Origin: Catajapyx aquilonaris
Lineage: Eukaryota
Assembly: GCA_000934665.2 (NCBI GenBank)
Contig: JYFJ02002109.1
Span: forward strand, 1 to 63,019
Length of the DNA stretch: 63,019 nt
Reading direction: 5' to 3'
Of this stretch, positions 578 to 18,198 are shown in pieces. The first letter of the stretch is position 1. Each line of letters opens with the position of its first letter. Made by a program: the position numbers and the translations under genes. The notes beneath the pieces were generated by a model. It saw only the letters and a program-made list of their open reading frames with translations, searched no databases and had not been told where the DNA came from.

Positions 578-883
578 TTAGTAGCCATATTTCGGCTGCT
601 CGTAGCCGTAGCTCTTCTGCTCATACTTGGGCTGCTCATAGCGATACAACTGCTGCTTCATCTCGTATTTGGGCTGCTCACAGTACTTCCTCATACTTGG
701 GCTGCTCGTAACCGTATAGGTCTGTTTAGCGTCGTAGTAGCCGTATGACTTGGACTTCTACGGCATCTACGCCATAGTCCGCAGATGCAGAGAAGCATCT
801 GAAAACGTAGCACCCAATATTATTAATAGAGTACGTGAGACCTACACACCATCACCGCCATTACAATAACTTACCGAGTACAT
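578..883 (-). pseudogene. Frameshifted gene for a small Tyr/Lys/Gln-rich repeat protein (YGYEQPKY repeats), probably secreted and structural; exons 883-875 and 798-578
   Basis: Minus strand: TATAAAA at 980-974; ATG TAC TCG followed by a GTAAGT donor; 76-nt intron ending TTTTCAG at 799; then MLLCI..., KSKSYGYYDAKQ, YGYEQPKYE and KYCEQPKYEMKQQLYRYEQPKYEQKSYGYEQPKYGY* in shifting frames. Confidence 0.7.
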
Positions 884-973
884 GACTACAAAATGTTCAG
901 TGAAGCGTGTGTAGATACGCCGTAGATCGACAGGTAAAATTTGAAAGAGAAAAAATGCAGGCCACATCCTCCT

Positions 974-980
974 TTTTATA
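974..980 (-). promoter_or_regulatory. TATA box of the YGYEQPKY-repeat pseudogene
   Basis: CCTATAAAAAGG on the minus strand about 90 nt upstream of the ATG at 883. Confidence 0.6.
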
Positions 981-1111
981 GGGGGAAACAAGACGGCCGT
1001 GTTCGCACTGCATGCTGGGCCAACATGCCAATATTATTTAGTTGCGTGACTTGAGGCAATGATCAAACGATCATATCAATTCAACAGACTGCTCGTTGTC
1101 ATATTGGAAAC

Positions 1112-1160
1112 AGGAGTGTGGTGGTTATCGCCACGGCTCTCCACCTTAGAGGTCCTGAGT

Positions 1161-1241
<81 letters not shown>

Positions 1242-1620
1242 TCTTGGGTAGTGCCTGACCCTATAGAGGGTATGCGGCACGGACCTTTATTGTAACTTGT
1301 AATTAGTAGGCTACATAGACCATATTTTTGAAATTCCCGGGCCCACGGGCAGGATGACAGGAGGGGATGTGCAAGGTGCAGTGCAATGTCTTACACGTGG
1401 CCATTTTTAGTGAACTCCCCCGGGTGGTTTAGTCTGTTGGAAATACCATCCGAGACGAAGCCAAAGGTGACCCTGAACTCTGCACGAGATGAAGGGGGTG
1501 TCCCCGGGCTGGGATCGAACCCGGGACTTCAACATCCGTGGGCGCATACGTTACCTCAGCACCACTCCGCCTCCCCTAGAGGTCCTGAGTTCAATCCCCG
1601 TACAGGATTTGTTCTCTAGT
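1112..1620 (+). mobile_element. Older tRNA-derived SINE head interrupted by a second SINE
   Basis: A-box-like GTGGTGGTTAT near 1118; the B-box-like GAGTTCAATCCC is restored when 1162-1576 and one TSD copy are removed. Confidence 0.55.
1162..1576 (-). mobile_element. tRNA-derived SINE with (TTA)n tail and 15-bp target-site duplication
   Basis: Minus strand starts GGGGAGGCGGAGTGGTGCTGAGG (A-box-like) then GGGTTCGATCCC (B box); (AAT)n at 1162-1240 is the tail; TAGAGGTCCTGAGTT occurs at 1147-1161 and 1577-1591. Confidence 0.85.
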
Positions 1621-14642: not shown

Positions 14643-15639
14643 CTCCTATACAGTGTTCTGGTTCACACGGGGCCACGGCAGGGAACACAGTCAACTATTA
14701 GGCAAACTCAAACTATTCTCAAACTATTACACTATATACGTAGTATGCGGGCGGGCGAGAGGAGGCCGAGCACGGACGGACGGACGGTCAAGAGTGGTGT
14801 GTGGTGGGAGGGGTGTGCGTGAGATGAGCACTACCAACTCAGGGCAAGAAACAGCGGCGGAAACGACAAGGCCTGCTGGGATGAGGAGGAGAAATTGTGA
14901 GAAAAAGGAGGAATGCAAGTGGGAAAAGGGAGGAGAAGGGCAGGGATATGAAGAAGAAGAGAGGCCAGGGGACGGGGTTACTATGCTGTAACAACCATTC
15001 CCTGCCAATAAACACTGCTATTTTTATACTCGTATTCAACTTCTCTTTTGTTATTGTCGCAGTGACACAAGCATTCATAGTCTGATAATAATATTTTAGG
15101 GTTATAAAAACTATGCGAATATGGATGTAATATACTACCAGGTGACCCGTTCTTCGTGTACGGGGATTGATAAATTAAATAAGTTTGTAAAACTTGCATA
15201 ATTATAGGCCTACTGTGTAGTGAGCTAAGTCAGAGTGACTGAAAATGCTCTATGCTCACGGGAGCTGATGGCTTCGAACATGTCACATGAGCAAGACCTG
15301 GTTCGTTTGGTCCAGGTTTGGTGCGAATAAGGGTGTGTAGAACCAGTATTTCATGAAATTAAGGCTTGCATTAAATGAGGGATGTGGACCGTGTGGTGAA
15401 AAAAAGGTGATAACCTTCATTTTTGTCATTTTTTACCTAAACTCCTAGCAACTATATAATTATGTAAAAGACACGACAAATTAACAGTTTCTGGTAAATA
15501 CTCAAGTTCACGTATCATGCACAAGACTACCACACGGACTATAGACCAAAACCTGCATTCCCTTTCCCTATGATTTGTGAAGAGAATGAAAACTTCAATT
15601 CGCTCTCCTGAAAAATTACACTTTTGTGGGTTATCAGTC

Positions 15640-15975
15640 TCATATGCTTTCTCTAAGTCTACAAATGCAACATAGCCCTTCTTGTTTACAGCTAAATGCT
15701 TTTCTATCACGAGTCTCATACAGAATATCATTCTGATCTACACCCCTTACCTGACATAAACCCACTCTGAATATAATTCAGTATTCTCTGACTTGTGACC
15801 CTCTTAACTCTTTCTATCAAAACCTTGGCATACACTTTTCCTGGTACAGTTAACATACTAATGCCACGATAGTTCTTACAGTCACACACGTCTCCCTTAC
15901 TCTTACACAGAGGTACTACCATAGCATCCCTCCAATCCCTAGGAACTACACCATTCTCAAAAGAAACCATACATA
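15640..15975 (-). mobile_element. RTE-clade non-LTR retrotransposon reverse-transcriptase fragment (frameshifted)
   Basis: VPRDWRDAMVVPLCKSKGD..CKNYRGISMLTVPGKVYAKVL..QSGFMSGKGC / IFCMRLVIEK..YVAFVDLEKAYE. Confidence 0.9.
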
Positions 15976-16877
15976 AATATATTAGCTAAAAAGTAACTAC
16001 ATTTTGTGAAGCCCACACCATGATTTATTTCTACTTCGTTAATAATAAATAGTCAGTGTGACAAAAATTATTATTCAAATGCATTATTGTGTTAGCGAAA
16101 TTAAGGCAATTAAGTCTGTAATGGTAATACACTAAAATGATCTCCAACCGAGTTAATAAAGATGCTATCATGCTTAACATTAACCAAAATTAACACTCAT
16201 ATCAGTGCGTAGCTATTCGAATTATATGGCAGTTATTTTTGCTGCCTATGGCTGATAATAAATTACTTAAAAATTGAGCCTTACCTTAACAGCACCTGTA
16301 TGACGTGGTTTCAATAGAACGGTATTTTTGGGAATGTATGTACAATATACTGACATTCCCTCTTACATAGCACCTCATACTGTATAGTCATAAGTTTTTC
16401 TATATAGTGCGTTATCATCCTTTATCTATACTCGCATAAAATAATCCTTAGTATTATTATTATTATTTTGAGAAGCGAGAGTGCAAAATATTTACATCAA
16501 ACCTCTCCCATTGACATCAAACAAGAGTAAATTAATTTTGCCGGAAACCTACTGGAAAAATCCTGCTAATAATTTGTTATGAATTAATCCCCCTTTAATC
16601 AAGAGACAGTAAAAGGGCATCAAAATGACATCATTCAGCATGCAGCAAAATCAGTCCGTCACAGACACCATTAAAATTTTACCATGCTTTCAATGCATGA
16701 ATAATTGTTCAAAAATAGAACGCAAAAAAGAGTTTACATATCGCAAAATTGCAAGTGTTGGTGGACGCGATTGAAAGTTAGGTGCGGGCAAAAAAAAAAA
16801 ATCTGATACTCTCTTCCTGAGTCTGCGTAGCTGTGATTATCCCTTATTGCAGCCCTATCTGAATTTCCGGCCGCCAT

Positions 16878-16994
16878 GGGAAGTGGGAGGTATCAATATA
16901 TCCAGCCAATGAAACATGTACAAGTATTCACCCTGGTGTATCGAAATTGCGCAATTATATAAATCAAACTTGACGCTTCCGGCTCCCATCACTC
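16878..16994 (+). promoter_or_regulatory. Promoter of the polyprotein gene: GGGAAGTGGGAGGT motif, TATA box, TCACTC initiator-like
   Basis: 14-mer at 16878-16891; TATATAAA at about 16956-16963; TCACTC at about 16989-16994; ATG at 17023. Confidence 0.65.
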
Positions 16995-17022
16995 TGTGCG
17001 CTGAACCGGACAAGAATCAACA

Positions 17023-18198
17023 ATGAAGCAGTTCGTGTTACTTTTTGTCGCCTCCTGCGTTGTGGCATCCACTCTCGCCAAGCCCTTCCCAAGTAAGTGT
17101 CTATCATTTTCAAATAAGTTGAAAAGCATTTAGCTAACAAAAATCGTTATTTTGTTTGCAGCTTTTAAGAGGGCTGCTGATTCCGATGAGTCTGACGACC
17201 AACAAGGATGGTTCTCTGACGAGAAGAGGTCTCTTTTCAAGAGGTTTGCTGCCCCCGATTCGTTCGAAGATTTCCTGGAATCGCTAGAAGAGCAAGGGTC
17301 TTTCTCTGACGAAAAGAAGAGGGCAGCCAAGCCCGACTCTGATGAGTCTGACGACCAACAAGGATGGTTCTCTGATGAGAAAAGGTCCGTCTTCAAACGT
17401 GCTGCCAACATCTTCAAGCGCTTCGCTGCTCCCGACTCCCTGGAAGATATCCTGGAATCGCTGGAAGAGCAGGGATCTTTCTCTGACGAGAAGAGGGCAG
17501 CCTCTGAATCGGACGAATCGGACCAGCAGGGATGGTACTCAGACGAGAAGAGGTCTGTCTTCAAGCGTGCTGCCAACATCGTGAAGCGTGCTGCCTTCCC
17601 CGATTCGTTCGAAGATTTTCTGGAATCACTAGAAGAGCAAGGTTCTTTCTCTGACGAAAAGAAGAGAGCAGCCAAGCCCGACTCAGATGAGTCTGACGAC
17701 CAACAAGGATGGTTTTCTGATGAGAAGAGGTCTCTTTTCAAGAGGTTCGCTGCACCCGATTCTTTCGAAGATTTCCTGGAATCGCTAGAAGAGCAAGGTT
17801 CTTTCTCTGATGAAAAGAAGAAGAAGAGGTCTCTTTTCAAGAGGCTCGCTGCACCCGATTCTTTCGAAGATTTCCTGGAATCGCTAGAAGAGCAAGGTTC
17901 TTTCTCTGACGAAAAGAAGAGGGCAGCTAAGCCCGACTCTGATGAGTCTGACGACCAACAAGGATGGTTTTCTGATGAGAAGAGGTCCGTCTTCAAACGT
18001 GCTGCCAACATCTTCAAGCGCTTCGCTGCTCCTGACTCCCTGGAAGATATCCTGGAGTCGCTGGAGGATCAGGGATCTTTCTCTGATGAGAAGAGGGAGG
18101 CCAAGCCCGACTCAGATGAGTCTGACGAACAGCAGGGATGGTATTCAGACGAGAAGAGATCCGCCTTCAAGCGTCTCGTCAAGCGTTTTGCCTTCTAA
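17023..18198 (+). CDS. Orphan secreted polyprotein precursor, 368 aa, with KR-flanked acidic peptide repeats; exons 17023-17092 and 17162-18198
   Basis: Signal MKQFVLLFVASCVVASTLA; 69-nt intron GTAAGT..GCTAAC..TTTGCAG (phase 1); six copies of (D/E)SDESD..QQGW(F/Y)SDE and six of DS(F/L)ED(F/I)LESLE(E/D)QGSFSDE separated by KR/KKR; AATAAA at 18207. Confidence 0.92.

Follow-up and report, generated by a model that had tools for sequence, protein, structure and literature searches.

A patchwork of secretory-pathway genes with a putatively co-regulated acidic pair in the japygid Catajapyx aquilonaris

The granins (chromogranins and secretogranins) and the SIBLING/SCPP proteins are acidic secretory phosphoproteins, and in vertebrates the SCPP genes form a cluster that descends from SPARCL1 and carries phase-0 introns throughout. 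A different kind of phosphorylated secretion is known from the cement of the sandcastle worm, for whose component Pc-3 a phosphoserine content of 60-90 mol% has been given (PMC9783952), while for the kinase Fam20C the consensus S-x-E/pS has been described (PMC8348777). Here we report on a stretch of 63,019 nucleotides from the japygid Catajapyx aquilonaris (GenBank assembly GCA_000934665.2, contig JYFJ02002109.1), hereafter the window, which comprises the entire contig (C976), so that no sequence exists to the left of base 1. It belongs to a lineage, the Japygoidea, that has been described as predators with pincer cerci (PMC6938034). A mitochondrial-type contig of the assembly, on which cox1, a tRNA-Leu-like gap and cox2 follow one another as read by eye (ARAGORN returned no tRNA), encodes a COX2 sharing 92% identity with Japyx solifugus, 85% with Occasjapyx, 80% with Parajapyx and 77% or less with named non-diplurans among the 120 matches listed, which places this soil-dwelling animal among the japygid diplurans. 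For the block 578..18198 a first-pass annotation had proposed a candidate cluster of four lineage-specific-looking genes for a secreted material, with glue, cuticle or egg mineralisation, or venom as options.

The block is most probably not one glue locus but a patchwork in which six secretory-pathway units, each with its own origin, have come together. At least three of the six have come separately from other genomic sites by duplication, namely a Tyr/Lys-rich relic, a syndecan retrocopy and a chimeric LDLa gene; these appear to have later decayed or been remodelled, the function of the chimera being inferred. Two units, the retrocopy and a gene with a single von Willebrand C domain (SVWC), had been overlooked before. 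The working core would be the acidic pair 11842-12542 and 17023-18198, and the explanation that we favour overall, a patchwork with a co-regulated pair of polyanionic phosphopeptide genes, is considered somewhat probable. All four genes named earlier have been found in place, and the two Ser/acid-rich ones are intact, but the Tyr/Lys copy is broken, and the LDLa gene, being of LDL-receptor-type origin (C5192), is not lineage-specific in kind. The acidic pair and its promoter words are located as follows:

11842..12542, plus strand: Ser-block gene, intact and single-copy (exons 11842-11932 and 12331-12542)
17023..18198, plus strand: polyprotein gene, intact and single-copy (exons 17023-17092 and 17162-18198)
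11706..11719, plus strand: 14-bp promoter word, copy 1, 136 bases before the Ser-block gene start
16878..16891, plus strand: 14-bp promoter word, copy 2, 145 bases before the polyprotein gene start

Both acidic genes lie on the same strand and share the same two-exon plan, with a signal-like first exon, one phase-1 intron bordered by GT-AG, and an AATAAA signal. The Ser-block product of 100 amino acids consists of a signal, an acidic pro-region, an R-x-K-R site, a run of ten serines followed by two Glu, and a basic end. The polyprotein comprises 368 amino acids, and its second exon contains 24 dibasic sites, none of which is of the furin type (R-x-x-R) or preceded by Gly (0/24). Cleavage would yield 12 acidic, non-amidated peptides, six of 17-19 and six of 23 residues, separated by spacers of 2-5 residues and each with a net charge of -6 to -8, and both peptide types share a seven-residue C-terminal pattern. 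Most differences among the repeats are silent, with dN/dS values of 0.05 and 0.12 (one out-of-register copy enters the second value), and the repeats are, on this comparison, under purifying selection. In the longer peptides the acidic core is amphipathic; the longer linkers, if left uncut, are amphipathic as well but cationic, with a net charge of +4 (p 0.01-0.04). The designation of both genes as phospho-Ser-rich is a prediction from S-x-E sites, which holds well for the polyprotein exon (31 of 50 serines against 6.4 in shuffles, the repeats not being independent) but less so for the Ser-block gene, where only 3 of 12 serines qualify (p=0.09) and the phospho-reading leans on the serine run. 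The pattern of Fam20C substrates, a signal peptide with enriched S-x-E/pS, has accordingly been found in the polyprotein; the overall Ser contents of the two proteins are 14.1% and 14.9%.

Searches of the 285.6-Mb assembly have returned only the polyprotein gene itself when queried with this single protein, and no credible relative has been found among 8000 homologue candidates, in the Atlas, among metagenome loci or by a profile search. A single metagenome locus proved to be a bacterial FtsY-like frame, and two profile matches, a TPR protein and a Leishmania repeat protein, have likewise been dismissed as chance; Pfam returned 18 families of low-complexity noise and no confident stretch. No relatives of the Ser-block gene were seen in the own genome, in Pfam or in an exact look-up of a part of it, a coverage without homologue search on which orphan status outside this genome is tentative. 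A spider-type processing-quadruplet precursor, with no inverse motif following the linkers, and an acidic inhibitor of the hirudin/variegin kind, these animals not being blood feeders, have both been dropped as models for the polyprotein.

The same architecture may be read as that of a precursor for neuropeptides or gut hormones belonging to a family not yet described, the products of which would act on a receptor via the common C-terminal pattern, with neighbours that are unrelated or loosely co-regulated. A signal peptide, 24 dibasic sites in the absence of an R-x-x-R furin site, and 12 similar peptides with a conserved seven-residue end under strong purifying selection are what such a precursor displays. 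In addition, owing to the spacers of 3 and 5 residues a further Arg comes to lie at P6 or P8, where it promotes cutting by convertases. Neither an amidation signal (no Gly before any of the 24 sites) nor a known-family motif is present, however, and the charge of -6 to -8 per peptide as well as the placement of 31 of 50 serines in a kinase consensus speak against this reading. The lack of a relative in searches also contrasts with the known precursors, which are widely shared: those known from hexapods have been reported as nearly all common to the wingless lineages (PMC4770511). A peptide-hormone precursor is thus judged unlikely.

An indication that the two acidic genes belong together is the 14-bp word, which occurs as an exact match in both promoters (-136/-145) and has 12 copies genome-wide, as compared with 5 for the reversed control. 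Among 40,000 random pairs of 300-base stretches, a common 14-mer of any kind was met in 56, a non-simple one in 32, and a position-matched non-simple one in 6. The word has emerged from the comparison of six promoter pairs, with genomic DNA and not promoters as the background; despite the six pairs its sharing is unlikely to have arisen by chance, although it remains a single word. Co-regulation of the acidic pair is regarded as fairly probable, and the likeness of the pair could be due either to shared regulation or to an ancient tandem duplication. In the other three promoters the word has not been found even at three mismatches. A wider regulon behind it has been rejected, as none of the 10 other genomic copies lies at a like distance before a signal-exon gene; in one of these 10 an ATG at +58 opens a hydrophobic frame, for which nothing else speaks. 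The gland-type common regulation suggested earlier for all four genes has found no counterpart, since words common to at least three of the four named promoters do not exceed chance (p 0.18-0.39).

In the proposed mechanism, the common promoter element would drive both acidic genes in one regulated-secretory cell type, where a Fam20C-type Golgi kinase would phosphorylate the precursors on S-x-E/pS. The phosphorylated precursors would condense with Ca2+ in granules, and convertases would cut them at basic sites, releasing short polyanionic phosphopeptides. These would most likely serve an exocrine secretion by binding Ca2+ as a matrix or by stabilising mineral, and would work in the manner of granins or SIBLING-derived peptides and not as a cross-linked cement. 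Such a calcium-binding exocrine role, given the pair, is put forward tentatively, being slightly more doubtful than probable. In a bolder variant, the polyprotein would form a single-chain coacervate, its phosphorylated acidic blocks alternating with the cationic amphipathic linkers and self-condensing with Ca2+, the acidic pair (perhaps together with the SVWC gene) would constitute a co-regulated japygid gland module, and convertase cleavage would then generate an adhesive or mineral-stabilising secretion; a precursor of this design had no counterpart in our searches, and we hold the variant to be very unlikely. If these Fam20C-type substrates are indeed co-regulated, the pair would give direct access to what a gland produces in a lineage closely related to the insects; it would also be a possible convergent case of linked acidic phosphoproteins.

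Between the two acidic genes lie the units that had escaped the first-pass annotation:

12665..13098, minus strand: SVWC gene, 97 amino acids (exons 13098-13032, 12970-12856 and 12779-12665)
14079..14957, minus strand: intronless syndecan retrocopy, parent on C779 (frame 14642-14124)

The SVWC gene is arranged tail to tail with the small Ser-block gene. It shows the pattern of its family, a signal peptide and a single eight-Cys domain, provided that a GC donor at 12856 (GC-AG intron) is used, and its third exon alone matches Pfam SVWC at E 3e-4, under the cut-off. A kappaB-type site is situated ~225 bases upstream of its start; 5% of background windows contain such a site. The syndecan parent is divided into five exons, and all four introns are absent from the copy in the window. 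Of two three-base insertions in the copy, one puts a premature end to the frame behind the membrane anchor; the copy has a dN/dS of 0.63 (0.34-1.43), indistinguishable from neutral, and no poly-A tail has been seen, as the 3' end is cut.

A defence or prey-handling neighbourhood of salivary, venom-like or immune character has to be weighed at this point, in which the SVWC protein and an LDLa decoy would be co-expressed with a precursor of multiple peptides whose cationic amphipathic linkers would be masked by its acidic blocks. Favourable to it are the position of the SVWC gene between the acidic pair with a kappaB-type site upstream, the amphipathic nature of the longer linkers (net +4), and the presence of the first seven letters of the 14-bp word in 3 of 5 promoters as compared with 4% of background windows. 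Japygoids are described as predatory (PMC6938034), and remipede venom has been characterised as containing linear multi-domain peptide precursors together with LDLa proteins (PMC5577568). The seven-letter match was, however, picked after the fact, dibasic sites interrupt the linkers, the remipede LDLa proteins bear a peptidase S1 domain that the window gene lacks, and our literature search has given no paper on japygid gland secretions or their molecular make-up. Defence or prey handling is consequently regarded as distinctly improbable.

The LDLa gene proceeds from a different history, which is reflected in the following features:

2414..2803, plus strand: candidate borrowed first exon of the LDLa gene, comprising a promoter, the signal exon 2623-2683 with its start and donor preserved, and the beginning of the intron
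5691..6021, plus strand: ancestral first exon of the LDL-receptor-type gene, which has lost its start codon and gained a 4-base insertion
6832..10154, plus strand: LDLa exons (6832-7475, 7632-8030, 8187-8564 and 9714-10154)
10558..10780, plus strand: decayed 3' remnant of the receptor-type parent (aligned with a score of 115, shuffles reaching at most 71)

The exons encode 13 complete repeats and one cut repeat, the 14th, followed by a 23-residue hydrophobic tail that resembles a GPI or tail anchor. Together with their introns and upstream DNA they are ~70-80% identical to an LDLa-EGF-YWTD-EGF gene on C5192, the EGF-CA and YWTD exons of which have returned nothing significant in a tblastn search against the window. 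Because the 3' remnant of the parent survives near 10.6-10.8 kb, the whole receptor-type gene appears to have been copied and its EGF/YWTD middle since deleted. The stretch 2414..2803 has homologues on C6777 and, within a receptor-like gene with MAM, FAMeT and FN3 modules, on C554, and we infer that its signal exon 2623-2683, which matches in phase, is spliced onto the LDLa exons; the 4-base insertion in the ancestral first exon makes an in-frame acceptor at 5951 and thereby a possible internal exon 5951-6010. The dN/dS of the exons amounts to 0.39 (0.29-0.53; 467 codons from three of the four exons), no stop occurs in 598 codons at a dS of 0.43, and under simulated neutral decay the frame survived in 3 of 1000 runs at 0.1 substitutions per site and in none of 1000 at 0.2, which points to a chimera that was alive and under constraint at least until recently. 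Of 20,000 random read-throughs, 4 reach the hydrophobicity of the tail (85 under a less strict threshold), and the GPI-type layout of signal peptide, small-residue omega site and terminal hydrophobic stretch fits by inspection only, with the first-exon splice presumed. The gene is thus probably a chimera encoding a membrane-anchored, LDLa-only protein of 640-660 amino acids, a cut-down duplicate of an LDL-receptor-type gene, and most likely a cell-surface ligand-binding or decoy protein unconnected with the acidic pair. Calcium in LDLa modules is structural and not a mineral store.

In comparison with the LDL-receptor family (LDLR/VLDLR and the insect lipophorin receptor) and with LDLa-only surface proteins of the CD320 type, the canonical six-Cys repeats with their acidic Ca-cage motif are shared, and the EGF and YWTD modules are shared through the C5192 parent. 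The window gene itself retains 13 repeats only, without the EGF-YWTD-EGF region, the membrane segment or the NPxY tail, and has instead a borrowed signal exon and a new tail, which makes it a clean candidate for gene birth via exon borrowing, internal deletion and tail gain. The venom parallel drawn earlier for this protein has found no support in the remipede forms: peptidase S1 has been reported for the remipede forms (PMC5577568), whereas the window gene shows LDLa only in the two of its four exons scanned with Pfam, the other two reading as LDLa repeats, and appears receptor-derived and probably anchored. For LDLa proteins in centipede venom the function is given as unknown (PMC4379518).

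Several observations accompany this gene. The parent at C5192 ~2300-6700 on the minus strand, a neighbour of Mpp10, has expanded LDLa repeats and seems to finish directly behind its final EGF module; no membrane segment was seen, and it is possibly a soluble form. The gene on C554 (60300-69000) carries MAM, FAMeT, EGF and FN3 modules, and its signal exon lacks an ATG; that it is a receptor phosphatase is a possibility that Pfam did not confirm. The stretch 3130-4244 is occupied by a young repeat element that contains nested inverted repeats as well as part of a helicase-like sequence and is present in at least 40 copies at 89-98%; we take it to be Helitron-like, and Pfam gave no match. A copy is found ~2 kb behind the signal-exon copy on C6777 in the same orientation, and its divergence is far below that of the exon. 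That a Helitron captured the signal exon is not supported, the exon being present in only 3 places as opposed to at least 40 element copies.

The remaining unit is located at the left end of the block:

578..883, minus strand: broken member of a Tyr/Glu/Gln/Lys-repeat family, frameshifted and signal-less (exon 1 883-875, exon 2 from 798)

This copy retains the TATA box, the start and the splice sites, but the family motifs change frame four times, the hydrophobic signal core of its paralogues is gone, and splicing as it stands gives 38 residues of non-family sequence followed by a stop. For these reasons it reads as a pseudogene from which no secreted protein is possible, and the cross-linkable Tyr/Lys component expected at this site falls away. 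Its repeat part matches 16 other contigs, with repeat frames visible in 15 of these 16 stretches; 11 open frames with a hydrophobic leader and 5-17 repeats are found on 9 of the 16 contigs. The family occurs both as single copies and in small tandem arrays, of three genes on C2897 and of two on C504. The intact members are signal-bearing, consist of tandem repeats with ~21-24% Tyr, and are near-neutral instead of polycationic, their Lys being offset by Glu. Neither an LDLa nor an S-x-E-rich frame occurs in any of 16 flanking stretches (151,682 bases, 11 contigs), so the linkage of the classes does not recur. In being secreted, Tyr-rich and tandemly repeated, the family resembles the low-complexity cuticle-associated GYR/YLP proteins (PMC2932725), and the Atlas likeness to Tyr-rich cuticle-associated proteins of 0.76-0.77 (second hit 0.76) provides a lead only; unlike them, the window copy is a pseudogene, and Pfam GYR/YLP matched neither of two intact members tested.

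These results bear directly on the originally proposed convergent locus, in which four genes would supply polyphosphoserine, calcium and a Tyr/Lys cross-linker for glue, silk or mineralised cuticle. All three composition classes do occur within 18 kb here and together in none of 20 comparison blocks, intact family members elsewhere could act as a partner in trans, and spinning glands have been described for the Projapygoidea, which are related to the Japygoidea (PMC6938034). On the other side stand the dead Tyr/Lys copy, the lack of the other classes in all 16 flanks of its family, the near-neutral composition of the intact family, the receptor-derived LDLa protein with its anchor-like tail, and four genes without a common promoter signature. 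A cement, silk or mineral locus of this design is highly improbable, and of the material-gene cluster there remains an unusual secretory run with two Fam20C-substrate-like genes that are probably co-regulated, but not a four-component cement, silk or venom locus.

The secretory-gene density of 578..18198 is indeed unusual with respect to the comparison blocks, 20 stretches of 20 kb taken at fixed positions on 20 longer contigs and not drawn at random: LDLa or S-x-E-rich frames are present in 0 of 20 and a weak Tyr-rich frame in 1 of 20. The LDLa detector used on these blocks and on the flanks recovers 12 of the 13 window repeats, and the categories (LDLa, S-x-E-rich, Tyr-rich) have been derived from the window itself, which renders the test post hoc. 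The first 20 kb of the window contain 0 N. The block, previously described as dense in transposable elements, is so only moderately, with background-repeat matches covering 4.8% of 1-18300, above the median yet exceeded by 4 of the 20 comparison blocks; a LINE reverse transcriptase fragment lies at 15400-15985 on the minus strand (Pfam RVT_1). The abrupt edge towards housekeeping genes has been confirmed by Pfam for the KGD4-like and RGP1 genes, which together with an F5/8-like gene form a compact trio at 19367-23400 (F5/8-like, KGD4/MRPS36-like, RGP1); the name NR2C2AP given to the first of these three by the first-pass annotation corresponds only to a weak F5/8 match. The best named match of RGP1 is a thrips protein (56%). 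Further downstream, a short frame of multi-exon look at 24959-25500 on the plus strand has no Pfam match in the one piece scanned, and 25.5-63 kb, without an obvious long coding exon, may be a large intron or a regulatory region. Elsewhere in the assembly, C5905 carries a frameshifted nad2-cox1 copy, probably a nuclear mitochondrial insertion.

Against the explanation favoured here, several points have to be set. Co-expression of the acidic pair hangs on one word selected from six promoter pairs, and without the position condition such sharing arises in 32-56 of 40,000 random pairs. The protein likeness between the Ser-block gene and the polyprotein is weak (marginal, p=0.033), and the seven-residue ending common to both peptide types resembles neuropeptide families. 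Two Fam20-family loci are present in the genome, which may represent Fam20B, Fam20C or both. A recent death of the LDLa gene is possible, being compatible with the pairwise dN/dS. Finally, six units in a row are rarer than the comparison blocks suggest, and a wider regional logic is possible.

With regard to the described systems, the sandcastle-worm cement Pc-1/2/3 resembles the locus in combining a predicted phosphoserine polyanion with nearby Tyr/Lys-rich sequence, but the Ser contents of 14-15% lie far from 60-90 mol% phosphoserine, the products are predicted to be processed to short peptides, and the intact basic Tyr(DOPA)/Lys partner of sabellariid-type cements is missing, as the local gene is broken and its family not strongly basic. 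The orcokinin-type neuropeptides share with the polyprotein a signal peptide, tandem similar peptides, dibasic cleavage and the absence of amidation; the polyprotein is far more acidic and phosphorylatable than such precursors, and no orcokinin signature was seen by inspection. The former three features also recur in xibalbin 11/12 as described for remipedes (PMC5577568), from which the polyprotein departs by the same acidity, and four motifs had no match in one supplementary file on xibalbin. From the vertebrate SCPP cluster both acidic genes are set apart by their one phase-1 intron and by the lack of any homologue found. The closest likeness is to the granin, SIBLING and SCPP proteins as a class: no sequence relationship to them has been found, and the pair is distinguished by strictly tandem peptide repeats, by a single coding exon behind the signal exon and by its invertebrate host; it is nevertheless, like them, secreted, Cys-free and acidic, with predicted Fam20C sites and dibasic cleavage, and consists of two such genes in linkage.

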